DNA of 64,000 bases, taken from the NCBI GenBank assembly GCA_001600815.1, contig BCKZ01000002.1, positions 1,496,294 through 1,560,293 on the forward strand, written 5' to 3'. Positions 5,877 to 54,416 of this stretch are shown in pieces. Position 1 is the first letter of the stretch, and every line of letters starts with the position of its first letter. The position numbers and the translations under genes are program-made. Below the pieces are notes generated by a model, which saw only the letters and a program-made list of their open reading frames with translations, searched no databases and was not told the origin of the DNA. This DNA comes from Alloascoidea hylecoeti. Lineage: Eukaryota.

Positions 5877-8789
5877 AGTTCGAGAAACTTTATATTGGAT
5901 AATGAGTTGGATGCTTGAATGAATTATGAGTTAGAATTATTTACTATGTTTAGAGAGCTTGGGCAACGTTGACACTCAATGGTTATATAATATATGGTAT
6001 AATATTGCTTAGCGCTTATGATCTTAGGCATTATTAGCCGATAAAAATTGTTTATTTTTATGTTATAATTAAAATTTCCCTATATAATTAGTTCCCAAAA
6101 TCATTGGAGTGTATTAGATATTCGTATACAAGCTGTAACTTCATGAGATGTTGTAAAATCTGTCTTGTAACTTGTATACACATTTTTTTTATATTCTTGA
6201 ATTTTTATTGTGCTTTATAGTGACATGATTTCAATTAACCTCGATCCAAACAAATGATATCAATATGGGGAAACCAAATAATGTGATTTTGTAAGATGAA
6301 TTCCCTGTTTCAATAATATATCTTCGCGTTTATAGATCTATAAGATATGATTGTCGTGATTTGAGTGCTTTTATTTCCCCAAATTGCATCATTATAAGGC
6401 TTAAAGTTTATTTTAAGATTTGATGAAAATATATAAGTTATTTTGATTACTGAAGGATTATGCTCTATCTAAATCTTGATCTTAGAAAATAGCATATAAT
6501 TGAAAGAAAAAGTAATTACAGCACATACTTTATGCATACAATTTATTACAATTATCTGGAAAGATGATGAATGAAGAGGATCAGATCCTAAAAGAATAAT
6601 TAAATAAGTAAATTTCCATGTGTAGCTACATAATTATAGAGAATTCATTCAATATTTTCACTTATAAATTCTACCTCTAAGCTCCCAATTTCAAATTTGA
6701 TTTTTCAAGATTTTCTTTATAGAAGGAGGACCTATTAGGGTTCTTTTAAAGAAATATCAACTAGTTATAAAACTAAAAACTTAAGAAAGAAAAACCATTT
6801 ATATAATCAAAAATGATTAACCCTGAATTCAGTTAGACTTGAGCTAAAATATCAAGGGATAACAGTTACTGTGAGGTAAGCAAACTTCCATATCCTCTGC
6901 TGAAATACTGTATGCATCGTATCAATGTTAGAGCTTAAATTTAAATTTACTTCCTATATTTGCTGAGATTTTAGTGGATCTGCAATTGAAGTATGCTTTA
7001 TTAGGTTTCGGAATATCCTGTATGCTTAAAATTACTTCTAGTTCAAATTGATAACCCAATGAAATAACTGGCTACGATAATTAAAGAAATAGATAAGAGT
7101 ACTATCAGAATGTTGTATGTAAGAAAAAAGGGATTTCTTGATTTTCAGTTTAGGGAGCTAATATGTATAACATATGCACGTTAAATAATCATTTCGAATA
7201 AACTTAAACAAAAATCATAATTATAAAAACAAATTCACGATTTCTTGTCGATTGCTTTTGAATATACATCCAACATAATATAAAGGATTTCATGAGATTT
7301 TGGTAATTCCTTATTCTTTCGTAGCCAAATTATAATTATAACCAGGTATTAAATACGAGGAGTGTTGAATTCAGGTTGGGAGGAGGGTAAGATGTCAGCG
7401 GAGAAGACAGGCTAGCTTGAAATTGGGAAGACACAGCTTGGGGAGTGGAAGGATGAAATGAGGAACTGGCGTACTTTTTGCAGGGGGGTTTGCTAAAGTT
7501 GTTACATGTAGATATTTGAGTGAGAATTTTGGAACAATAATCAAGTTTTTGGCAAAAAATGGTAAATAAATGAAGGAAATATGGAACACGAGATATTTAT
7601 ACATAATAAATAATTTTGCAATAGGGAAGCCCAATATTAATATGTTTTCAGAAGCATAATATACACAAAAACAACGCTAGTTCGAGAAAGTTCTAGATTT
7701 AATTCTAGTATTATAATGAAGAACTTCAACTTCAACTGTATAACCTTATAAGGCCTACTCATAATACATAAATACTGGTATTTATATTAATGGCATAATT
7801 TTATCAATAAAAGACAGATGGCAACTGAACAAGCTTTCCAAAATCAAAATAAATAAGTTGGAGATGATATGACATCTTGGAGTTCAGAGTATACCACATA
7901 TCCCATCAAACCTTAAATTAATGACTGTCGTTCATATTTTATATTTAATAAACGAGAATTCCCCTTTTTTTTCAAATCATTGTTCTTTTAACTTATTAAA
8001 AAAAATTACTATTACTATGTTACAGATTATTTTCAAAGCCAAATAATCCCCTGTGGCTGCATCTACATTTTATTCTAATATTAATTCTGATGAAGATGAT
8101 TCACAATCTCCTGTAACTCTGTCCATGCTGAGCTCAGCTCTAAAAGTATGTCCGAAAATATTTTGAAATCAATAAAATATATTGCAGCTGATGAGAAATT
8201 GCGCCATAGATGGTGTATCAAGAATATTCAAATTCCCCGCAAAAGAGTTATATTTTTTGATCAAATAAGTTTTATAGTTTTTGTTTATCTCTAATATATA
8301 TATTATACATCGAAATTGTTATTAATGTAATTCAAATACATATATGGTACGTAATGATCAACTTTACATCTTTAAGAATTGTATTTGACTCTCTCTCATT
8401 ATCTAAACTTAACAATTCGTATCAAGAGTGATACTCGGGAGAATACGAAACTAAACTATACTGATTAGTTTTTAGATTTACAATTATTTTCACAGTTGTA
8501 ATCTTAAACTCCAGAATCCAAAATTTGTGTTCTATAAGGTAGCTATAGTTATCGATATCTAATAACAAAGAAATTAGATAAATATAACTTCGAAAACCAA
8601 ATGTGATCCTTGGTTTACATATCAGAGTTATAATCCCATGAAACCATCTGGAGTAGGAACGTATAGTGATGACTTTTCAGCAAAGATGACAGTCTAATAT
8701 ATAATGTTACTTTTTTACCCAAATATTTTGTCGCGCGTTAGAATCGAACTCAGGTCAACTTTACATATAATTTCTAATAAAGATATTTA

Positions 8790-9160
8790 AATAATTTAAA
8801 TCTTCTAACTAAAAACTATTGAATTGAGGAAATCACTCAAAGAATATAAAACCCCACTTCTTCTTTATTTCTCTTTTGTTTTCTCTTTCTGTATTCTCAT
8901 ATTCATTGTATCTCTTTTTCTTATGATCATGTTATTTTATTTCTATTTTTATTTTTATTTATGGTGATCCTCCAAATTTGATGCTTCTTCTAACTTTCAG
9001 TACCTTTGAGATGAAGAGGCCTTTCTTTTTTATATTTTTTCCATCTCTATCTCTATTTATCATCAGATTTTTGATATCTATTGTTTCTAGTATTTTCTCT
9101 TTTAGTATTTTCACTGTATTACACTTTTCAAAAATATGATTAATATATTATTTTTCCCAA
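8790..9160 (-). mobile_element. Decayed 3' fragment of an L1-like non-LTR retrotransposon ORF2
   Basis: Minus strand reads YINHIFEKCNTVKILKEK...KVLKVRRSIKFGG, resembling the zf-RVT HxFxxC end and the IWxxRNxxxF motif. It then reads ...SDFLNSIVFS*, similar to the younger copies; stops and a frameshift are present. Confidence 0.55.
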
Positions 9161-9161
9161 A

Positions 9162-9317
9162 TTTTTTTTAACTTTTCATATATTTTCTAATTAGATTATA
9201 TAACTAGAAACTATGTAAATCCTGAGGAAATCTCCACTATATATAATGAAATAAAAACCTCTGTTTCTATTCTTCTTATTTTTGTGTGTTCTTGCCACTC
9301 TTCTTTCTTCTCTTATG
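9162..9317 (-). mobile_element. Poly(A)-tailed 5'-truncated retroposon fragment, copy 1, upstream of tRNA-Glu
   Basis: Near-identical to 48846-49007. Minus strand is open (IREERRVARTHKNKKNRNRGFYFIIYSGDFLRIYIVSSYII*), then a short UTR and an A-run. Confidence 0.7.
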
Positions 9318-9393
9318 AACCTAGACCACCAAAAGGTAGTAAGACAACATGAATATGTCCTATTTAATCACGTGAAGAGTCCTTCAGAAAATT

Positions 9394-9465
9394 TCCGATG
9401 TAGTGTAACGGCTAGCACGGTCCGCTTTCACCGGGCAGTTCGGGGTTCGATTCCCCGCATCGGAG
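9394..9465 (+). tRNA. tRNA-Glu (anticodon TTC)
   Basis: TCCGATGTAGTGTAACGG...CTTTCAC...GGTTCGATTCCCCGCATCGGAG; paired acceptor stem; T-rich terminator follows. Confidence 0.97.
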
Positions 9466-10136
9466 TTTCTTTTTGTTTTTTCCTGAACCCTTGAATGCCG
9501 AGTACGCCAAAAAGTGCTCTATTTTTTAATCTCCTATAAATTGATATAATTTATAATAAAATGACAAGGTATAAAAATAATGTGATGCTTAATAAGGCCT
9601 GGGAAGCTACTACACCAAGAAGTGTTTAAATTTCAAAACAAATTTTAAACGTTAACCATAGCTTGCACGCACTAACACACACGAAAGAAGAACTGAGTAC
9701 AGTGTAGCGGCTTATTTATATAGTAGATATAAATGTATAGGTAGATCAAGTGCTTGTAATAGGGTCAACTCCGGATATAGCTAGCGATCGGTAAAAGTGT
9801 GTCCAACAACAGGTGATCGATCAATTTACCAGCACTATTGGAAATTTATAATCAAATACAGCTAAGAGCCGACGTTCATATTAATTTTACATCTTAATAC
9901 TCACAGGATCCTGTTAGAAGTTAACAAATTATTACAAATTCTTTATAATTAATTAGTCAGATAACGTCCTACGTATCACGTGCATATTAGAATAAATGTG
10001 TTCTATTTTGTGAAGAAGTAACCTCCTGAATAACCCTCTTACTTATCAATTGCAATTGATCAATTGATTATTCCGTTCATATACTTCCATTTCAAGACTC
10101 AACTTAAAATTCTAATTGCAACTACTTTTAATTCTG

Positions 10137-22052: not shown

Positions 22053-22278
22053 GTAAGTCAAAAATAAAAAGTGATATGATCAAAACTGTTGAGGAGCTAT
22101 TCATGATAATCTTAAATACCATCGTTAATACATCAGTGTCGAAAACCATCAAACATTAATGAACTACAAACAAGGGGGTTGATAACTATGCAAGATCGTT
22201 TGAAAATAGCTTTAACAACATTTTTGCATCTTCTCAATGGTCGATAGCTTGAATTTATAACTAACATCTGTTTTCCAG
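22053..22278 (+). other. 5'-UTR intron of RPS25
   Basis: GTAAGT donor, ACTAAC branch at about 22260, CAG acceptor one base before the ATG. Confidence 0.8.
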
Positions 22279-22279
22279 C

Positions 22280-22603
22280 ATGCCACCAAAGATTCAACAG
22301 TCCAAGGCCGCTAAGGCAGCTGCCGCCGCCGCTGGTGGAAAAAAAAGTAAGAAGAAGTGGTCCAAGGGAAAGGTTAAGGATAAGGCTCAACACCTTGTCG
22401 TCCTCGACCAAGAAAAATACGACAGAATTGTCAAAGAGACCCCCACCTACAGATTTATCTCAGTTTCTGTCCTTGTCGATAGATTAAAGATTGGTGGTTC
22501 CGTTGCCCGTTCTGCTATCAAGAAATTAGAAGAAGATGGCCTTATTAAACGTGTTTCCAGAAGTAGTTCACAATTGATTTACACTCGTGCAACAACTGCT
22601 TAA
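22280..22603 (+). CDS. RPS25: 40S ribosomal protein eS25
   Basis: MPPK...[15 protein letters not shown]...[18 protein letters not shown]...IYTRA. Confidence 0.98.
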
Positions 22604-22919: not shown

Positions 22920-23126
22920 TCCAGAATTCATTTAAAACGCAGAAAATTTTTCCTTTATTCTTCTCCTTAATCAAATACTTGGTTTCAAAAATGTTTTTTT
23001 GAACAATTTATACAGTGAGTCTTTGCATTGCTATTTTTAAAGAAAAGGTTCAAATTGAATCAATTAAAGCTGATATATTATTTATGTCTTTGTTGCTTTG
23101 AATGGCATATTCTATTCTATAAGGAT

Positions 23127-23210
23127 AAGGGTGATTAAATAAATAATTTTTTAAAACTGAGGAAGTAAATGCAGGACAAAAAAACAATAGGAATTCTTCG
23201 TTTATGACTA
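23127..23210 (+). ncRNA. snR57: Box C/D snoRNA snR57-like
   Basis: C-like GTGATTA, CTGAGGAAGTAAATGCAGGAC and TAGGAATTCTTCGTTTATGA match recalled yeast snR57. Confidence 0.75.
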
Positions 23211-23363
23211 TTTCTTATATGCCTGAGGATATGCTTTTTTTATGGATTTGATTTAAACTAATTCTATTGATATAATATATTGTGATTGAAAGAACAGTAA
23301 ACTAACCGTTTTTACAGTGGTATGTTTTGGAACAAAGAATATAATTTATCATAATTTAATAAT

Positions 23364-23445
23364 TGTTATGAAGAATGTTTTTCACAAACTTTTTTCCGGC
23401 GATTTATAATGAGCCAAGGATAAACATGCATCACCATCTGAACTT
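23364..23445 (+). ncRNA. snR55: Box C/D snoRNA snR55-like
   Basis: C-like ATGAAGA, TTTTTCCGGCGAT and guide plus D box ACATGCATCACCATCTGA. Confidence 0.8.
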
Positions 23446-23600
23446 TTATATTATGATTTATTAAGATTTTTACTTTGTGAAATTTTTAATTCTAACATCT
23501 TTAAAAGTTTTATCAGCTTTAAGTATATTTGGTTTTTTAATCATATATGTAAATGGTATGTCTTTTTAATCATTATTGGTTGCTTATTATTGTGTCTATG

Positions 23601-23699
23601 GGATCACTATGATGATAAAAAATACTATTCAGTTCTGCTTCTGAACCAAAAATTCATGAAGAAAACTATATACCAAGCTCATTTTGCTGATCTTGATCC
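23601..23699 (+). ncRNA. snR61: Box C/D snoRNA snR61-like
   Basis: C box ATGATGA, TACTATTCAGTTCTGCTTCTGAACCAAAA, D box CTGA, terminal stem GGATCA/TGATCC. Confidence 0.85.
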
Positions 23700-25637: not shown

Positions 25638-26489
25638 ATGGAAAGTGAAAATAATCTTCCACTGGAGCTCTTGCTGGTAATAGTTGAACATCTGGAGCCA
25701 AAGGATATAATCAGTTTCGGTTCTATATCTACATATTACAGACAAATTATCCTTCCAATTGCTTTTGATACAATTAAAGTAAATGATTCAAACTCAAATT
25801 CTACACTATCAAGGCTCTCGCAAGAATCAGAAGGCAATTTTTTGAATAATATTGGAAGTGGAGTACACAATTTTGAATACTTTGTGGAAAGCCCTTATTT
25901 ACCTGAAATTTTGAAAAAATTAGATTCTTTATTGAAGTTATGCCCAAATTTAAAGAAAATTTCGTTTTTAGGTACTAGATTTGCTAATTTCAATGATTTT
26001 TATTGTCCCTCTTGGCCTACTTATACAAAGAATCATTTATTTCGCACTGAAATCCCTAATTATTCATTTGGTCAAATAAACGAGCTCGTGTGTGTCTCAA
26101 AAGCCGGGTTGATTGGTAACTATAGAGTTGGAATGAGTGAATCGCCACATTTTCTTTTGTGTTTTCCGAATCTCAAAGTCCTATCCTTAACGGGATTTAA
26201 ATTGCATAATAATTTTTTAGAAACAATACTGCTGCTACCCAAATTCACTACATTTATTTCAAAAAATTGTAGTATTAAGAATCAATGCCAGTATACTGAT
26301 GCTGAATTTGATCTACAATTTCGAAAAAAAAAAAAGAAGATTCCAGAGGCTTCAATAAGTTATTCCAATGATAGATACTTCAAAGGGTTTGAGTTGCAGT
26401 ATTTTGATAAGAAGTATGTCTTTGAAAATGTTTTTGAAAACATAACAGATTCCTCATCATATAAATTTGTTGTTGAAGAAAATAGATAA
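25638..26489 (+). CDS. F-box/LRR-like protein, paralog A
   Basis: F-box-like LPLELLLVIVEHLEPKDIISFGSISTYYR; LRR-like CPNLKKISF and FPNLKVLSLTG; ATG at 25638. Confidence 0.78.
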   Translation: MESENNLPLELLLVIVEHLEPKDIISFGSISTYYRQIILPIAFDTIKVNDSNSNSTLSRLSQESEGNFLNNIGSGVHNFEYFVESPYLPEILKKLDSLLKLCPNLKKISFLGTRFANFNDFYCPSWPTYTKNHLFRTEIPNYSFGQINELVCVSKAGLIGNYRVGMSESPHFLLCFPNLKVLSLTGFKLHNNFLETILLLPKFTTFISKNCSIKNQCQYTDAEFDLQFRKKKKKIPEASISYSNDRYFKGFELQYFDKKYVFENVFENITDSSSYKFVVEENR

Positions 26490-30961: not shown

Positions 30962-32974
30962 TGCTAACCTATTCTTTCATTCACTTCTGGTGATTAATTT
31001 AATGCGGAAAGCCGGGGGTTGATCACGTGATAGTTTTGAGTTGGTACAGTTGCGATCGGGTTCGTTCCGAGGGCCCGGGTTACAATTTTCTTTTTGTTTT
31101 TTAAGCTACAGTGGATTTCCAGGACCACTTATGACAGATGACTGGAGCTCATGTGAAACCAGTTGTTGAAACCGATATGAATTTCACGAAACAAAAACAA
31201 AAGTACTGCTTTGTGGGCCGTAGAGTTTGAATAAACAATTGATGAAGGAATTAAATCAATCATTAAGGATATGGTAATAACAAAGTAAACAAGTTTTTTA
31301 TTTAGATCCGGTTGATGAGTTCCCTCCCATGATGCCCCAAATGAGTCAATCAAAATATGAATGATTTCTTTAACGGCAAACTTGCTTTTTCATCTGGCTC
31401 AGTACCATTGTTATATGAACTGATGGAGATAATTAATATGAAGATTCCCACACTGCAGAGAAACTTCAACAATTGTTGGTCGTAGATGCGATTGGCCATC
31501 GTCGGCGCTTAAATATATTTGTGTTTGTGTACCAATTTATTGCTGTGATGGGCCGAGACAGGGATGATATCTTAAGGATGGGCATTCTATATTATTTCAC
31601 TGGTTGGTCTTAATAGTCTCCCACAACTAATCTGCGTAGTTGAGTAAACATTAGGCCATATTTTAAATTATAACGCGGTCACAGGATGTAATAATATTCG
31701 TCCTATTATTCGACCACCCTTTGAATTAAATTCAAATCCATATGATTCCATACACAAATGCCCGAGCTGGTAAACATGGATGTAAACTTGGTAATCAAAA
31801 TATCTGGAGTCAATAGACGCTACGATATGATCTGGAAGGTCAAGAGACCAAATATGAACGAACTATAAGTATTAAAGTACCTTCAATCACTTCTAATTTA
31901 GTTCCAAATTTTCAAAACTGCTACTTTTCATAATTTTACGAATTGAATTGAGATTTAAAACTCCAGTCCCCATCTAAGCTTCATTGAAAAATCTTTAACA
32001 TCAAAAACACCAAAATATTTTCTGGATCATAGTATTTACGATAATAATCGTAATACTACTTCAGCTGGACCACATATAAATTATAATTCTTTTTCTTCGA
32101 ATAAGTCAGAGCCCAATAGTTATCGGTTCTCTATAAGTGTCCCTCTTGATATTATATTAAAATCGAAAGTTAATTCTATGAATTCACCATATGTATATGC
32201 TTCAACAGTGATAATCTACACACTACACTATTAATCTTTAATTACTTTATTTTATGTTAGTTGGCTTCCTCTTATATAAAACTGATAGAGCATAACGGGT
32301 AATATGTGGGAAGTGTCACGGGAAAAACTAGAGCAAAGCTATCAACAAGAGCGGTCAGACAATGATCACACGAGAGGAATAGGGACAGAAACTATGGATA
32401 TTTTATACAACTGAGAATAGGCGTAGATTATATCACACATCTCACTCTAACAAAACCCTTCTTCCTTGACCAAAAGGGTTGTGCAATTAAGCTCATTTCG
32501 GGAAAGGCGGCTGTACCAGGTTTATCCTCTATACTTGTAAGAATGGGAAGAAATTATTTAGGGCTCAAACTTTAGGCTGAAGATATATGCATTCCGATAT
32601 TAGGAGTATACCCAGATCACAACAAATAGCGTGAACTTTGATAACAATTTGTAAACTATATTTGAATACACAAACACGCTCAGCAGTAAAATCGTTTGCA
32701 AAATACCTCGGAAGATAATAAATCACATAATAATTAAAAAGTATAGGTAGCTATGCTATAGGAAGAAAATAGTAGCAGAAGAGCAAAAGATAAGAAGACA
32801 GTTAGATAAATGGAAAAGGAAGATTTAGCTGCTTTACATACACACTAAGTGTAATGTGACAGTTTCTAGTTATGATTACAATTGGAAATTTTGTAGCTAA
32901 AGATAAAAACATCATTATAGTTTGTTATAATTATAAGTTATTGTATATGTCAATTAATTGTTTATCCCTTTTCA

Positions 32975-35180: not shown

Positions 35181-36011
35181 TTATTCGGACTCTGTTATGT
35201 GCTCAAAAACTTCTTCGAAGAAATGCTTCTTATCAAAATACTGCCACTCAAACGCTCTGACGTATCTATCATTGGAATAACTTATTGAAGCCTCTGGAAT
35301 CTTCTTTTTTTTTTCTCGAAATTGTAGATTAAATTCATATTTAGTATACCGGCGTTGATTCTTAAGACCACAATTTTTTGAAATAAATGTAGTGAATTTG
35401 GGTAGCAACTGTATTGTTTTTAAAAAATTATTATGCAAGATAAATCCCGTTAAGGATAGGACTTTGAGATTCGGAAAACACAAAAGAAATCGTGGCGATT
35501 TCTCCATTCCATATCTATAGTCATCAATCAACCCGGCTTTTGAGACACACACGAGCTCGTTTATTTGACCAAATGAATAATTAGTGGTAAGGCAGGTGCG
35601 TGAATGGAAAAGGCTAAGGTACCCCCTACCAAAAGAACAAATGGAACAATTTAAATCATAAAATCCAAAACGAGTACCTAAAAACGAAATTCTCCTCAAA
35701 TTAGGGCATACTTTTAATAACGACTTCAAATCTTTGAATATATTTCTTACACCATTTATGTTCATAAAGAATTCCAAATCGTGTACTCCACTTCTAATAT
35801 GATTCAAAAATTTGCCATCTGATTCTTCTAAAAGGTCTGATACTGTGAACTTTGAGTATGATCTGTTTACTTTAATTTTCTTAAAACAAATTGGGATGAG
35901 AATTTGTCTGTAATAGGTTGATACAGAGCTGAAACTAATTATATCGTTTTGTTCCAGATGTTCAACTATTATCAACAGGAGTTCCAGGGGAAGATTATTT
36001 TCAGTTTCCAT
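35181..36011 (-). CDS. F-box/LRR-like protein, paralog B
   Basis: Aligns end to end with 25638-26489 in inverted orientation. Confidence 0.78.
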   Translation of the reverse strand: METENNLPLELLLIIVEHLEQNDIISFSSVSTYYRQILIPICFKKIKVNRSYSKFTVSDLLEESDGKFLNHIRSGVHDLEFFMNINGVRNIFKDLKSLLKVCPNLRRISFLGTRFGFYDLNCSICSFGRGYLSLFHSRTCLTTNYSFGQINELVCVSKAGLIDDYRYGMEKSPRFLLCFPNLKVLSLTGFILHNNFLKTIQLLPKFTTFISKNCGLKNQRRYTKYEFNLQFREKKKKIPEASISYSNDRYVRAFEWQYFDKKHFFEEVFEHITESE

Positions 36012-45415: not shown

Positions 45416-47533
45416 TTAAAGAGAAACAGTCAACACGTCACTATAATCAGAAATCTTCTCAAAATCATAAACATATGCCACTCGAGCATAAAATCTATTT
45501 TCATCATTTAATCCCATGTTATTTGCCCAATTATTTAATGAGAAATTGGTATCTGCCCCTCTATAAACCTCAAAATCATTAATTAGTAAGCTATATCCAT
45601 GAATTGTATTCCATACGGTAGAGTGTTCTACACTTGTTATATTATGTTCGGGGTTAGATTTCCATTTTATTTGATTATCTTCATAACCAACAATTGATGG
45701 AACTATTCCATTACCACTTGGCCCACCTCTTTGTAAAGATGAAATAGTTTCAAAAATAGAATCCATACCCCAACGAGCAGACCCACTAATATATAAACCT
45801 AATAAAAGCCCCTGGAAAACAAATCCTGGTGTTGTTCTAAAGGCTGTTCCTGGTAATAATATCAATCCTGCTATATAATGATGTATCCTCAATGACATTG
45901 GAAATTCAGAGTCGATAATATTTGCAAAAATTGTAATCATTATAATGACTAGAATATAAAATGATAAATATTTTTTAAATTTACCAGCTTTCCAGATAAT
46001 TGTTGCTTGTAAAATGATACCAGCTGATAATACCAAAATCAATGTCAGCAAAGCAATCCAAGAACCTGCCTGAGCCTTTATATCTTTAACAGTCAACCGA
46101 TCAATAGGTGCATTATCTAAAGTGTAATTATTTAATATTCCAACCCAAAAGGGTCCCAACCAGAACACAGTTTTCGTTAAAGAAGCCTTATTATTATATA
46201 ATTGAGGTCGGGATATAAACCTCCAAATCACATAGAGAACAAACGAAGCAGGTAAAAAGCGTTTGAAGCCCAATGAAACTAATTCTGCATTCATTTCAAG
46301 AGAGCCTAATGATGTTATTGGAGGATCGGAGCATAATATGATAGTCCAGAACCCCATGATTGTTAGTACCCAATAAAAAATTCCTGCATTTACAGTAAAG
46401 TATGAAAACACTACTGAAGTGATTATTTGAACCCATATGATAAAGTTTCTATAATCATAACAATTACTAAACTTTATCTGATCTGTATTTGCAAAAATAT
46501 ATGAGAATGGGAAGTATGAGTCAAATCCAATCGAACTTATACCACCTTTCCCTTCACTTTCTTTAAATGAATCATAAGCCCCATTATATTGAATCCTACC
46601 GCACCCACCAAAATAGGTTGATATTATTCCACTATGAAGTCCTGCTCCACAAACATATGAATCACCTCTATAGACACCTTCGATTTTTGAAGCCGTTTCA
46701 GAAATGATATTCGCTCCGCCAATAACATAGGACCGATACATGACTTCTTGATTTCCAACGGTTTTCTCAGTAAATGTCCAACTTTCTCTCCAACATCTTG
46801 CGGGACATCTAAAATTCAATGTTTTATTTTCGAATGGTTTGCAACTTTCAGCATTTAAACCACATGCTTCATTGGACCCTTTCCATATTAACTCATTAGC
46901 TCCACATGATAGTAATAGGATATTTTCATATTCCTCTGTTTGTTGATTGTAGGCCTTTGGTTCCGCAAATGTTATGGTTTTAGTTAGCCTTAAGAATATG
47001 AATATCCAAATAGATACAACGACAAATGTAGATATAGTTAGTATCCGATTATATCGAGAGTTTTCGTATAGTTTCACGGGGAATAGCTGAACCTTCTCAA
47101 ATAACATCAATGGCTGATATTCTGTCATATTAATTGGATCCTTTGGTCCATTCCATAGTAATTTTAAAAACGTTGAAAATCGATGCTGCTTAGAGGGCTC
47201 AATAGAAGGAAACCCCAATTCAACCTCAGGTTCTCTATTACCTATATCACCTCCCACAGTCAAATAGTCGTCATAGCCATCCATAAAGTGAGCTGAATTT
47301 GATTCGTGTGATCTTATTGCGGTGGTTCCGGTGTGCTCTGTATCTTCTCCGTCACCGATCTCAGGATTAAGGTTTTCGTTATAAATGAACTGTGTGCTTT
47401 CCATACTTTGAGTTCCCGATAAACTCTCCAGACTCTCTAGCCGAATGCTGCTACCACTATCAACTACCTCCGGACTCAACAGATTGCTATCAATTTCTTG
47501 TTCATTTGGAAAAAGATGCCTTCCAGATGACAT
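45416..47533 (-). CDS. LCCL-domain multi-pass membrane protein
   Basis: CGLNAESC, FRCPARC, YRGDSYVCGAGLHSGII and LRIHHYIAGLILLPGT; first ATG at 47533. Confidence 0.88.
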   Translation of the reverse strand: MSSGRHLFPNEQEIDSNLLSPEVVDSGSSIRLESLESLSGTQSMESTQFIYNENLNPEIGDGEDTEHTGTTAIRSHESNSAHFMDGYDDYLTVGGDIGNREPEVELGFPSIEPSKQHRFSTFLKLLWNGPKDPINMTEYQPLMLFEKVQLFPVKLYENSRYNRILTISTFVVVSIWIFIFLRLTKTITFAEPKAYNQQTEEYENILLLSCGANELIWKGSNEACGLNAESCKPFENKTLNFRCPARCWRESWTFTEKTVGNQEVMYRSYVIGGANIISETASKIEGVYRGDSYVCGAGLHSGIISTYFGGCGRIQYNGAYDSFKESEGKGGISSIGFDSYFPFSYIFANTDQIKFSNCYDYRNFIIWVQIITSVVFSYFTVNAGIFYWVLTIMGFWTIILCSDPPITSLGSLEMNAELVSLGFKRFLPASFVLYVIWRFISRPQLYNNKASLTKTVFWLGPFWVGILNNYTLDNAPIDRLTVKDIKAQAGSWIALLTLILVLSAGIILQATIIWKAGKFKKYLSFYILVIIMITIFANIIDSEFPMSLRIHHYIAGLILLPGTAFRTTPGFVFQGLLLGLYISGSARWGMDSIFETISSLQRGGPSGNGIVPSIVGYEDNQIKWKSNPEHNITSVEHSTVWNTIHGYSLLINDFEVYRGADTNFSLNNWANNMGLNDENRFYARVAYVYDFEKISDYSDVLTVSL

Positions 47534-47919: not shown

Positions 47920-48558
47920 TCACTTTGATCCCAACGTGGAATAACTTTTTGACGAGTTTGGGTATAGAATACCATCGACATTGATGGCTTTTATAAATGC
48001 TTTGTTAAGTGTACCTGGTCCGTGAAGTTGGACTTGCAATTTAATTTCGTCTTTAAGACCATTAATGAAACAGTCTATGAAAGCCTTTTCAGATATGAAG
48101 TTGTTCTCTAGCTTTGCTGTCAATTCTTGGAATTTGAGAACATATGCTCTGACGGAGTATCGTTATCTTAGATTGAGGAATTCACGGGATAGTTCCTCGT
48201 GATAATGTGGCGGATAAAACGTTGCTTTTAGCTCCTGTTCGAAATCTGCAAAGGCTCCAAAAGATCTAGCAATATAACAATTCAAAGCCCTACCTGAAAG
48301 AAAAAGGCCTGCATACCCAATTTTATCACTTTCTTGTTCCACTCTGCTTAGTCGGAATCGAAGTTCAATTCCATTGAGCCACGCTTCCATGTCTTCAGCT
48401 ACTCGGGACTCTTCAGAGGGTTTCAGTTCTGGGATCCTTAAAGTGAAACTGGGCATTCTTGGTGATTCTTCGCCGTTCATGGAATGCTGAGGTCCGAGGG
48501 AGCTGTCACTACTAATGTCGTCTTCTGGAGGAATACCAATTACTCCTGATCTAATCAT
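47920..48558 (-). pseudogene. Ty3/gypsy gag relic
   Basis: The two ORFs are one frame split by a single TAA: LSGRALN...FLNLR*RYSVRAYVLKFQEL...FINGLKDEIKLQV (Retrotrans_gag pattern; the stop sits at the conserved Q). No pol follows. Confidence 0.85.
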
Positions 48559-48583
48559 TCAAGGTGTTGTCTTCGAGTCTTAA

Positions 48584-48596
48584 CGCGCCGCTACCA
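48584..48596 (-). promoter_or_regulatory. Primer-binding site TGGTAGCG(GCGCG), tRNA-iMet type
   Basis: Lies 2 nt after ...TTTACA (LTR 3' end) and just before gag. Confidence 0.8.
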
Positions 48597-48598
48597 AA

Positions 48599-49073
48599 TG
48601 TAAAGTAACTGGCAGAATCAGTTACAATGGCTTATTAAGACGAAGCTGATATGTATTAGATCTCGTGAATTAAGTTATCTATTAAAGGAGGGACTTATCT
48701 TAGCTTTATATAAATAAATCCAAAATATATTTATAGAATAGTCAAAAGAAGTATTAAATGTAAAAAAGAACTAATAATGTCCTTTTCGAAGTTTCAAATG
48801 TAAACAAGAAATTTAAGAATATAATAAGGACTAATAATGCAATAATTTTTTTTTTTAACTTTTCATATATTTTCCAATTAAATTATATAACTAGAAACTA
48901 TGTAAATTCTGAGGAAATCTCTACTATATATAGTGAAGTAAAAACCTCTCTTTCTATTCTTCTTATTTTTGTGTATTCTTGACACTCTTCTTTCTTCCCT
49001 TCTTATGTATATATATGTTTTTTCTAGCTAAAGAACTCATAACCAAGAATAGTCAACAATGAGTTCCCCTACA
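48599..49073 (-). mobile_element. Probable 5' LTR of the gypsy relic, interrupted by a retroposon fragment
   Basis: Minus strand TGTAGGGGAAC...GTTACTTTACA (TG..CA, imperfect inverted ends); TATATAAA at about 48705-48712. The outer boundary is inferred because there is no second LTR. Confidence 0.55.
48846..49007 (-). mobile_element. Poly(A)-tailed 5'-truncated retroposon fragment, copy 2, upstream of tRNA-Phe
   Basis: By hand alignment, 9 substitutions and one 3-nt indel versus 9162-9317; same open frame ending DFLRIYIVSSYII*; 11-nt A tail. Confidence 0.7.
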
Positions 49074-49085
49074 CGGCTCATACCA

Positions 49086-49092
49086 GCGGACT

Positions 49093-49134
<42 letters not shown>

Positions 49135-49158
49135 TGTGTTCGATCCACAGAGTTCGCA
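49086..49158 (+). tRNA. tRNA-Phe (anticodon GAA), intronless
   Basis: GCGGACTTAGCTCAGTTGGGAGAGCGTCAGACTGAAGATCTGAAGGTCCTGTGTTCGATCCACAGAGTTCGCA; T5 terminator follows. Confidence 0.98.
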
Positions 49159-51248: not shown

Positions 51249-54200
51249 ATGGCCCCCCAGTCTGCTATTAAAATCTCTCCAAAAACTTCAAACATCAACA
51301 TGATTTTATCATCTCCTGATTCTGCCTCTCGTCGTAAAAGACCTCAATCTATGGAGTCTTTGCTTCCTGCAAAAAGATCAGCCAATAATGTGTCATGGTC
51401 ATCCTCAAAAGATGGTAACAATGGTCGTCAATCCTCCTCAGATCTCCCACCACCAACACATGAGAGAAAGAATTCTTCGAACGTTTACAACCCATCATCC
51501 TCATCCAATAATACGGCTGCTAATTCTTCTGGGTCTCACATTCAAAGGGCAGCTGGTCATCGACCAGTAACCTCATGTACTCACTGCAGGCAACATAAAA
51601 TTAAGTGTGATGCTTCTGATAATATGCCTCGGCCTTGTTCCCGGTGCCAGAAAATTGGTTTAAAATGTGAAATAGATCCTTCATTTAAACCTCAGAAGGG
51701 CGGTCAGATTCAAACCTTGAGGAATGATATCGAGGAACTTCGGGCTACAGTTCAAAATTTACAACGAAATGAACAGGTTTGGCTACAAAGAATTCATCAT
51801 TCTCAAAGTCCTGTAGGTTTTTCGGGTGCATCTCCTTCAAACTCAAATATTGAATCTTCACCTCGACTTGTATCAAATTCTCTTCAACCGACTATTTCTT
51901 CTCCTAATTCTTTAGCCGCAGTGAAACAAGAAGGAGATTCTAATATATATACTGCTAGTAATATATCTCAACATTCAAGATTCCCACTACTTTCGAATTC
52001 TAATGCTCAACAAACTATACCAGATGCAAAGATTGCTTCAATCGCTCCAGGTGCTCCCTTGACAAAACTAGTTTCCAGTACTTCTTACGCATCAATCACC
52101 ATAGCAGCAGATGATCCTCCTCTTAATGACCAACCTCATTTAACACTTTCACGGCATAGTACACTTACAAGCGGTCAAAGCCCAGACAATAATGCCGGTA
52201 ATGCTGAAACCCCCCATAGAAACGATAATACCAATGATTCTATACATAGTGAACAATTAGGTCCACATATTCAGGTTCCACAAACAGAATTTATACTTGG
52301 TGATGCCCGTTTATCACTTGAAAAAGCAAGACAACTTCATAAAAGATTTATTAATGATTATTTACCATATCTTCCTATTTTAGTGTCACATAGTCCAACT
52401 GAATTATATTCTCAATCACAATTACTTTTTTGGACAGTAATGTTAACCGCTTGTTTATCCGATCCAGATCCGACTCTTTATACATCATTAGCATCTTTAA
52501 TTAAACAATTGGCCATTGAGACATGTTGGATTCGTACCCCGCGCTCTACGCATATTGTTCAGGCATTGTTAATTTTAGGTACGTGGCCATTACCCAATCA
52601 AAAAGTTTTAGATGACTGTTCTTATAGATTCATCGGGTTAGCTAAAAATCTTGGTTTACAATTAGGCCTTCATCGGGGAAAATTTATTGATGAATTTTCA
52701 AGAACTCAAGTTTCATTGGATGATGCTGAAAAATGGAGGACGAGAACTTGGCATGCTGTATTTTTTTGTGATCAATTTTGGAGTGCGAATTTAGGTTTAC
52801 CCCACTCATTACAAACTGATTATTTAATTGAAAGAGCTCGGACTGATGGTGAATTACCACATTATTTTAGGTCTTTAATATCTCTTGCTGTTTTTCAATG
52901 TAAATTGACAAATGCTATTGGGTCTTCGGTTTCAAGTCCTGATGGATTGTTAAGTGCTTATGATAGAGCTGGATCTTTGGCAATTTTAGAACGACAATTA
53001 GATCGTTTAAAAATGCATTTGGACATGGATAATCGTAAGTAATATTTTATTTGCTTTGAAATTTTATTTTAATCAACTATATTAACAAAAATTATTATAA
53101 TTATAGCTTGTATTGAAATTTATTATTTATATGTGAAATTAATGGTATGCTGTTTCTCATTTCTCCCAGAAACACCTATCGAAGATCAAACGAAATATGT
53201 TGGACAAGCATATCAAGCAGGTACACGAATAGTTACATTAATGTCTCATCTTTCAGAAGATCGACAATTAATTGAATATCCTATTTATGTTCGACAATCT
53301 GTTTCCTATGCAGCTTTTGTTTTATTCAGATTACATTTAACTCCATATTTATTACCACAACAAGTAGAATCATGTCGTCAATCAATTGTTACAGTTCATC
53401 GACTTTTCAGAAATATGTTAACTGCATGGAAAGATGTTGAAAATGATATTAGCAGAACTGCAAAAGTTCTTGAGAAATTAAATTTTGTAATTGTTACATA
53501 TCCTGAACTTTTCACAAAAACAAGTTCAATTATTGAAAGAATGAGAAGTCATTTAGCTGGTTCATTATTTTATGAATTAGTTTATTGTGTACATGAAGCA
53601 AGAAGACGATATAATGAAGAAAATAAACCTGATGAAAATGGCAATATTTCTCATACTTTTAACCTTTCTGAAAGATTTAATAATAATAAATATCCAAATG
53701 ATATGATAACTTCAGTGAATCCACAATTGTTTAATCCTCTTCCTTTACCTTTTTATAATCAAATTTCAAAAGAGGATTTTACCGCCGAGTTAACAACAAC
53801 TCCAAATGGAACTACAATTACTTCGTTGGTTCCAACCACTGCGGCTATGTCTGCTGCTACTAAATCAGCTAATGCTGCTGGATTATCTGAACCTACACAA
53901 ATCAATGGTATCCCAATATCAATGTTGGAAGGTAGAGGTGTTGGTGGTGGTGCTGTTTATAGTCTTAAACGGCCTCAACCCGAAAACAATACCAATAACA
54001 GTAATTATAATAATAATACCAATGATAATAATACTAATAATAGTAATGATAATGTCAATACAAATGAAAATAATGAAGAAAATACAAATGGTCTTTTAGG
54101 AACCCTTGATCGACAAAAGAATATACTTCCTTCAGGTTTACAAACCCCAACATCAGGCGTTGCAATTGAAAACTGGGCACCACAAGTTCCTAATATTCAA

Positions 54201-54416
54201 GATGGTAGAAATAGTGTATTTAACGTGACTTCTAATGATTTTAGAACAACAGCAAATACTCCAGGAATCACACCAGGACAAACGCCGGGTTCTATGCTTG
54301 GTATACAAGGACAAGATTTCCAAAGCCATTTTGATTATCTTATGCAAGGAATTGATTTGATGGATGGTAAAGGTGATGATTTCCTTGGTTGGATGAACGT
54401 TTCACCTGAGTTTTAA
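51249..54416 (+). CDS. SEF1: Zn2Cys6 transcription factor Sef1, 2 exons (51249-53034, 53107-54416)
   Basis: GHRPVTSCTHCRQHKIKC cluster and ETCWIRTPRSTH; a 72-nt GTAAGT...TAG intron joins the two ORFs in frame. Confidence 0.92.

Follow-up and report, generated by a model that had tools for sequence, protein, structure and literature searches.

The L1-type retrotransposon TRE5-A of the amoeba Dictyostelium discoideum inserts upstream of tRNA genes with its 5′ end facing the gene. The available part of PMC5911963 describes it as an element with an oligo(A) tail that enters 40–54 bp upstream of the mature tRNA, and that of PMC3159450 gives an integration distance of about 50 bp on the same side of the tRNA gene; the non-LTR element NLTR-B of Polysphondylium pallidum is placed 39–64 bp upstream of tRNA genes in the portions available of PMC5911963 and PMC5006619. 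The elements known to target tRNA genes in yeasts are of another type. Gypsy-type yeast elements lie at most 30 bp from the tRNA start, Ty3 inserts in both orientations, and Ty1, Ty2 and Ty4 have broad insertion windows at tRNA genes, according to the accessible text of PMC5911963; the tips of yeast LTR families are TG...CA in the excerpts available of bioRxiv 10.1101/2025.04.25.647736 and PMC5014426. In the one review table at hand, all yeast elements that target tRNA genes are LTR elements and all non-LTR examples come from dictyostelids (PMC5911963 Table 1). Two poly(A)-tailed elements of Saccharomycotina are relevant here. Ylli of Yarrowia lipolytica is represented by 104 fragments between 30 bp and 1 kb long and has no clear target-site duplication (PMC5014426, in part), and Zorro3 of Candida albicans uses poly(A) tracts as integration sites, no regional preference being known for it (PMC7175516, in part). 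Within the literature covered, much of it in excerpt (PMC5006619, PMC5911963, PMC7175516, PMC5014426, PMC13148404 and bioRxiv 10.1101/2025.04.25.647736 among it), we found no budding-yeast non-LTR or SINE-like element tied to tRNA genes; a prior description is possible.

We analysed a window of 64,000 nt from Alloascoidea hylecoeti (assembly GCA_001600815.1, contig BCKZ01000002.1, positions 1,496,294–1,560,293, forward strand), an AT-rich stretch (G+C about 31%) with dense, intron-poor genes. Both ARAGORN and Rfam report exactly two tRNA genes in it, tRNA-Glu (anticodon ttc) at 9393–9466 and tRNA-Phe (anticodon gaa) at 49086–49158, each on the plus strand. The dihydroxyacetone kinase encoded in the window is 53% identical to its best non-self homologue, with named matches that span many Saccharomycotina genera, and its gene contains two CTG codons, both in Leu/Phe alignment columns. 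By these matches the host is a budding yeast with no close sequenced relative in the collection searched; a protein atlas placed it no more narrowly than Ascomycota. Three box C/D snoRNA genes of budding-yeast type (snR57, snR55 and snR61) are clustered at 23124–23693 on the plus strand, downstream of the gene for ribosomal protein S25 (22265–22600). A pair of paralogous genes of 283 and 276 aa (25638–26489, plus strand; 35181–36011, minus strand) forms an inverted repeat with a 405-nt arm, 90% complementary, and about 8.7 kb between. Two long frames follow one another on the plus strand at 51249–53042 and 53142–54416, the first with a zinc-cluster-like cysteine motif; the pair may be a single transcription-factor gene that an intron or a frameshift interrupts.

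The initial annotation held that the same element lies upstream of both tRNA genes, and pairwise alignment bears this out: 9162–9314 and 48849–49001 match over 153 nt with 93% identity and no gap. A 19-mer common to the two copies of this repeat, here called A, is present at exactly two places in the window, where 0.07 would be expected, and a profile of the A family recovers them with E values of 1e-47 and 3e-49. Copy A1 (9162–9328, minus strand, the sense strand being the one that ends in A8 at 9162–9169) turns its 5′ tip to tRNA-Glu at a distance of 64 nt, while copy A2 (48846–49030, minus strand, its end at about 49030) has an A11 tail at 48846–48856, an AT-rich insertion in its 5′ part near the tip, and about 55 nt between that tip and tRNA-Phe. 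In both copies the A-run end, on the minus strand, points away from the tRNA gene, in agreement with the head-to-head orientation reported earlier. The distance of 76 and 78 bp that had been given for the end of homology describes the pairwise comparison well (76–79 nt), but not the unit itself: other genomic copies of A, seen as loose contig ends among those listed, share about 15 nt beyond the pairwise limit, so that the unit ends near 9328–9330 and about 49030, 64 and 55 nt short of the mature tRNAs. The flanks of A1 and A2 are unrelated on either side, and the spacers between the copies and tRNA-Glu or tRNA-Phe are not alike (z 0.3, with 396 of 1000 shuffles reaching the score). With different tRNAs as well, the earlier argument against a segmental duplication holds. 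The dissimilarity of the spacers also rules out that A runs on to the CAACA found near each tRNA gene, which would have given it a canonical LTR tip.

Read along the minus strand, the unit consists of a purine-rich start, a TATA-like box in the middle, a 10-bp hairpin, a conserved terminal motif and the A-run. Just ahead of the tail lie TATATA and A-rich motifs, which we take to be yeast mRNA 3′-end signals, followed by a GTT/A(n) end. The unit also contains a T5 run; an internal run of this kind would hinder Pol III. The A-run stands exactly at the homology edge, in line with the poly(A) noted earlier, and varies in length: it is A8 in A1 and A11 in A2, while two further copies have at least 15 A and about 12 A continued by a broken A-rich stretch. 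Runs of eight or more A are common in the window (28 in 64 kb), and the length of homopolymers varies through slippage. The far end of A begins with TG on the minus strand (...CA on the plus strand), and at the opposite end A1 and A2 carry an A/T run; no TG...CA pair of tips and no terminal inverted repeat was found in A. The motif CCAAA flanks A1 on both sides (9157–9161 and 9329–9333, five of five positions), the corresponding flanks of A2 matching at four of five, and this pair is a possible 5-nt target-site duplication of A1. Five nucleotides is the duplication length produced by Ty integrases. The reading is ambiguous because other copies of A carry CC after the tip, so the CC may belong to the element. 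Just past the tail, CCCAAA (TTTGGG on the minus strand) is seen in A1 (9154–9161) and in one other copy in the runs; with two cases in all, it is a possible target motif.

To gauge the size of the family we used contigs of four public runs placed on 8600–9600; the four runs stem from three studies, two of them from one sample, and one is a metagenome containing 0.67 of the words. Runs X5–X10 contain next to none of the words, and nothing was inferred from them. Against a summed depth of the single-copy flank of 61 in run X1 and of 23.5, 10.3 and 8.6 in the other three, A reaches 33848, 9152, 3597 and 3431 at 9178–9211 and 6612, 3537, 797 and 867 at 9280–9313. This is some 80–550 times single copy, where summed contig depths are not copy numbers, and contig assembly merges repeats and loses rare variants. 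The body of tRNA-Glu serves as an internal control: it stands at 12–22 times single-copy depth in the single-organism runs, which is plausible for its gene number. A is a large dispersed family with hundreds of copies, and the many copies in contigs with unrelated flanks bear out the earlier view of it as mobile. Two scans of metagenome_contigs and scans of genome_contigs and viral_contigs with a conserved 22-mer or a degenerate A/B pattern gave no match.

The contigs also define the limits of the unit; for loose ends, pieces and joints, only those listed were counted, out of a set that includes 229 more loose ends and 711 more pieces. At the A-run edge, 16 contigs of X1 among those listed (ten at 9162, three at 9161 and three at 9164) continue into unrelated DNA with an agreement of 0.46–0.56, and the other three runs have loose ends of the same kind there. 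At the far edge the depth drops from about 100-fold to about 4-fold, and the loose ends of three to five contigs per run, among those listed, agree with one another and with A1 over about 15 nt before they diverge. A sharp edge at the A-run together with a far end that most copies have in common makes A a discrete unit of about 167–185 nt. Its terminal 50 nt are 3–5 times more abundant than the rest, and some short fragments occur at joints. The depth falls towards the 5′ end without being monotone (31497, 14337, 5378, 5126, 7589 and 9064 at 9194, 9221, 9235, 9246, 9263 and 9288, respectively), so frequent 5′ truncation of A is not established. No strand change was seen in any of the nine types of element-to-element joint among those listed. 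The bin 9348–9381 has no contig cover in three runs, from which nothing was inferred.

Upstream of tRNA-Glu, A1 is part of a stack in which A1, C and B follow one another in one polarity. Element B (8757–8930, minus strand) is an older relative, about 66% identical to A, with the same polarity and terminal motif, an enlarged hairpin and no A-tail; it ends in GTTGA where A1 and A2 have the A/T run, and its far end is common to A1 and A2. Between A1 and B lies element C (8932–9161, minus strand), a repeat unrelated to A, whose body (8974–9140) stands at 5–20 times single-copy depth and whose A-rich tail (8932–8960, 23 A of 29) has the polarity of A1; only three such stretches occur in 64 kb. All four elements near the tRNA genes, A1, A2, B and C, have their 5′ end toward the gene. 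A comparison of A and B with C, with the LTR candidate described below and with the DNA downstream of the tRNA genes gave a single weak match, downstream of tRNA-Phe (z 4.0), which we do not trust. C and the DNA to the left of B have no significant similarity to the Ty3-type relic or its LTR.

Two further stretches at this locus are worth recording. Directly after the end of B, 8732–8765 resembles, on the minus strand, the T-arm and the acceptor 3′ strand of a tRNA, while its plus strand agrees at 15 of 17 bases with the extended primer-binding region of the Ty3-type relic (z 4.0 when the search was small, without significance in larger searches); in X1 and in X4, one contig each joins this stretch straight to the tail of an A copy. 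It may be the remnant of a primer-binding site, a piece of a tRNA gene or flanking DNA that was carried along. On the other side of the tRNA gene, about 50 nt downstream of tRNA-Glu, a short repeat at 9518–9585 stands at 5–8 times single-copy depth, its A6 end (minus strand) pointing to the tRNA gene; a further retroposon family, sited downstream of tRNA genes, could have left it as a fragment.

The fourth family member of the window, D (32788–32892, plus strand), is diverged, with a profile E value of 4e-6 and a high composition bias, and has kept the hairpin. No tRNA or other Rfam RNA was found near it. One of the four family members of the window is thus near no detectable Pol III gene, which counts against a strict link with such genes, unless a gene was lost there.

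The hairpin (9177–9215, minus strand; inner stem 9210–9201 with 9193–9184) lies 8–15 nt before the tail and is kept in all four members, A1, A2, B and D. Together with the terminal motif it is the best conserved part of the family, and by contig depth it is the most abundant stretch of the family in the runs. Across the four members, 92.9% of 56 cells are paired, as opposed to 38–50% with slid partners. Covariation in the stem is not significant (132 of 500 shuffles reach the observed score), and folds of the whole unit are unremarkable, with z values of −1.2 and −0.6.

The initial annotation had also read an open frame, a stop and a short UTR into both copies. Such frames do exist, with 58 and 50 codons on the minus strand, a stop and about 27 nt before the tail, but evidence for coding does not follow. 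The plus strand of A is open over comparable lengths and the relative B is closed in all frames, so the open frame is no more than chance would give. Both frames are closed 7–13 codons past the tip of the unit. Searched against a protein collection, the peptide yielded one candidate and nothing significant among proteins of 87–2000 aa and no candidate among those of 26–86 aa, and Pfam gave no match on the frame. We treat A as non-coding, given the frames on the other strand, the closed frames of B, the peptide without a homologue and the empty Pfam result. No reverse transcriptase or endonuclease was found in the 97 intergenic frames of at least 55 aa in the window, nor one joined to the A frame in the protein collection. 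With permissive filters, Rfam found no tRNA-, 7SL- or 5S-like head on A in 8500–9500, the best hit being a snoRNA model with 15.5 bits and an E value of 7.1; without a Pol III-type head, A does not fit a classical SINE.

Adjoining A2 is the relic of a Ty3/gypsy-type LTR retrotransposon (47923–48841, minus strand), which has the polarity of A2 and lies 4 nt past its tail. It consists of a candidate 5′ LTR of 243 nt with TG...CA tips (48599–48841, minus strand), a putative primer-binding site TGGTAGCGGCGC 2 nt after it (48585–48596, minus strand), which we read from the general layout of LTR elements, and a Ty3-type gag pseudogene with one in-frame TAA (47923–48558, minus strand; Ty3_capsid, E 6e-15; Retrotrans_gag, E 6e-12). 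Neither pol nor a second LTR was found in the window, and the relic ends before the host gene at 45416–47533. Sequence comparison connects the LTR candidate with none of A, B and C. Neither the A-run of A1 nor that of A2 is followed by a primer-binding site in the window; the site at this locus comes after the separate 243-nt unit. A Ty3-type element this close to A2 keeps an LTR-related origin of A under consideration.

The placement of A is the feature that any explanation has to accommodate. Both tRNA genes of the window have a copy upstream, in one orientation and at 64 nt (Glu) and 55 nt (Phe), so that the position and orientation claimed earlier are confirmed for two of two genes. By our own arithmetic, the chance that two random insertions would both fall within 100 nt upstream of the two tRNA genes is about 1e-5. 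The placement at 55–64 nt matches that of the dictyostelid non-LTR types TRE5 and NLTR-B. With A2 taken out, about 60 nt would separate tRNA-Phe from the start of the LTR of the Ty3-type relic, a position like that of A. This would agree with a steric limit, common to both elements, where the initiation complex ends on its upstream side, and equally well with shared insertion machinery.

The reading that we prefer, with moderate confidence, is that A is a short non-autonomous poly(A) retroposon whose insertions lie upstream of Pol III genes and all face one way, as those of TRE5 do. For a yeast, an LTR origin is the default, and the relic beside A2 makes it a serious competitor: A could be the solo LTR of a Ty3/gypsy-type element that targets tRNA genes, or a piece derived from such an LTR (U3-R up to the polyadenylation site, for instance), inserted by integrase or with its help. 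We rank this second to the poly(A) retroposon and think it possible but rather doubtful. In its favour are the review table, as far as that source goes, in which only LTR elements are described as targeting tRNA genes in yeasts (PMC5911963 Table 1), the relic with its primer-binding site and gag pseudogene at the tail of A2 in the same polarity, and the distance from tRNA-Phe that its LTR would have once A2 is taken out. The discrete far end that begins with TG, the 5-nt direct repeat at A1 and the TATA-like box point the same way, as does a copy number on the order of that of solo LTRs in baker's yeast. The missing tail of B and the abundance of slip-prone A-runs count against the retroposon. 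What does not suit an LTR is that one end of A is an A-run of variable length instead of CA, with no terminal inverted repeat, that the DNA past this run differs between copies, that the primer-binding site at the second locus belongs to a unit unrelated to A, B and C, and that the neighbouring repeat C also has an A-rich tail. The joints listed are all same-strand, whereas Ty3 inserts in both orientations, and 55–64 nt exceeds the limit of 30 bp listed for gypsy-type yeast elements, both points as given in the available parts of PMC5911963. If A is LTR-derived after all, it would still be unusual in the A-run at one tip, the strict orientation and the distance of about 60 nt.

The origin proposed in the initial annotation, in which the copies are 5′-truncated 3′ ends (the end of ORF2, a stop, the 3′ UTR and poly(A)) of an autonomous L1-like element that targets tRNA genes, appears unlikely to us. 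The order of open frame, stop, short stretch and tail and the excess of the terminal 50 nt would suit it, and yeast L1-type elements do leave many short truncated copies, as described for Ylli (PMC5014426, in the portion available). Random truncation of a long element, however, does not fit a far end that is common to A1, A2 and B and at which the contig depth collapses. The frames close soon after the tip and are equalled on the other strand, the peptide has neither a significant match in the protein collection nor a Pfam match, and the window holds no fragment of a reverse transcriptase or endonuclease, so this part of the annotation was not upheld. That A is not mobile at all, but arose by local duplication or is a conserved module that tRNA genes have upstream, is very improbable. 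Both copies do lie upstream of tRNA genes, but the tRNAs differ, spacers and flanks are unrelated and D lies away from any tRNA gene; the contigs, with hundreds of copies that have unrelated flanks and are stacked on one another, contradict it.

Under the poly(A) retroposon reading, a non-coding RNA of A (about 167–185 nt) with a poly(A) tail would be copied into DNA at the chromosome by target-primed reverse transcription, with enzymes supplied by a hypothetical autonomous partner that is absent from the window. Insertion would be steered to the Pol III initiation complex on tRNA genes, at its upstream edge, probably through tethering to Pol III factors, about 55–65 nt before the mature tRNA and with the 5′ end of A toward the tRNA gene. 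Repeated insertion at one tRNA gene would shift older copies outward and so build up stacks of one polarity like the one at tRNA-Glu. The conserved 3′ hairpin may be the site that the reverse transcriptase recognises. We put forward tentatively the wider proposal that a budding yeast has a poly(A)-type target-primed system that reads the Pol III complex in the manner of TRE5, at about 60 nt and in a fixed orientation, and that has a SINE-like passenger of about 170 nt in hundreds of copies. If true, both a tRNA-targeting non-LTR system and a SINE-like family would be new to Saccharomycotina, at sites shared with a Ty3-type element, and the case would represent an independent convergence, in a third lineage, on the Pol III complex as a place where insertion is safe. 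Pol III factors have their best genetic system in a relative of this host, so the tethering mechanism would be directly testable.

Each of the known systems resembles A in part. Like the solo LTRs of Ty3/gypsy-type elements in yeasts (sigma of Ty3, beta of Tca8, and those of Tyl3, Ylt1, Tyl6 and Tj1), A is short, dispersed and situated upstream of tRNA genes; unlike them, it has an A-run at one end, lies 55–64 nt away and was seen in one orientation. With SINEs it has in common that it is short, discrete, A-tailed, non-coding and present in high copy number, and presumably that it depends on the reverse transcriptase of a partner, but it differs from them in having no tRNA-, 7SL- or 5S-like head by Rfam. 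Zorro3 and Ylli provide the precedent for poly(A)-tailed retroposition in Saccharomycotina; unlike A, they are long coding elements, and in the portions of the literature available we found no tRNA association reported for either. The range of NLTR-B, compared by description only, contains both distances of A, although NLTR-B, unlike A, is an autonomous dictyostelid element. TRE5-A is autonomous, has two ORFs and lives in an amoeba, whereas A is a non-coding unit of about 170 nt in a budding yeast for which no ORF1/ORF2 partner was identified; A is nevertheless like TRE5-A in its position 55 and 64 nt upstream of the tRNA, in the 5′ end turned toward the tRNA gene and in its A-tail.
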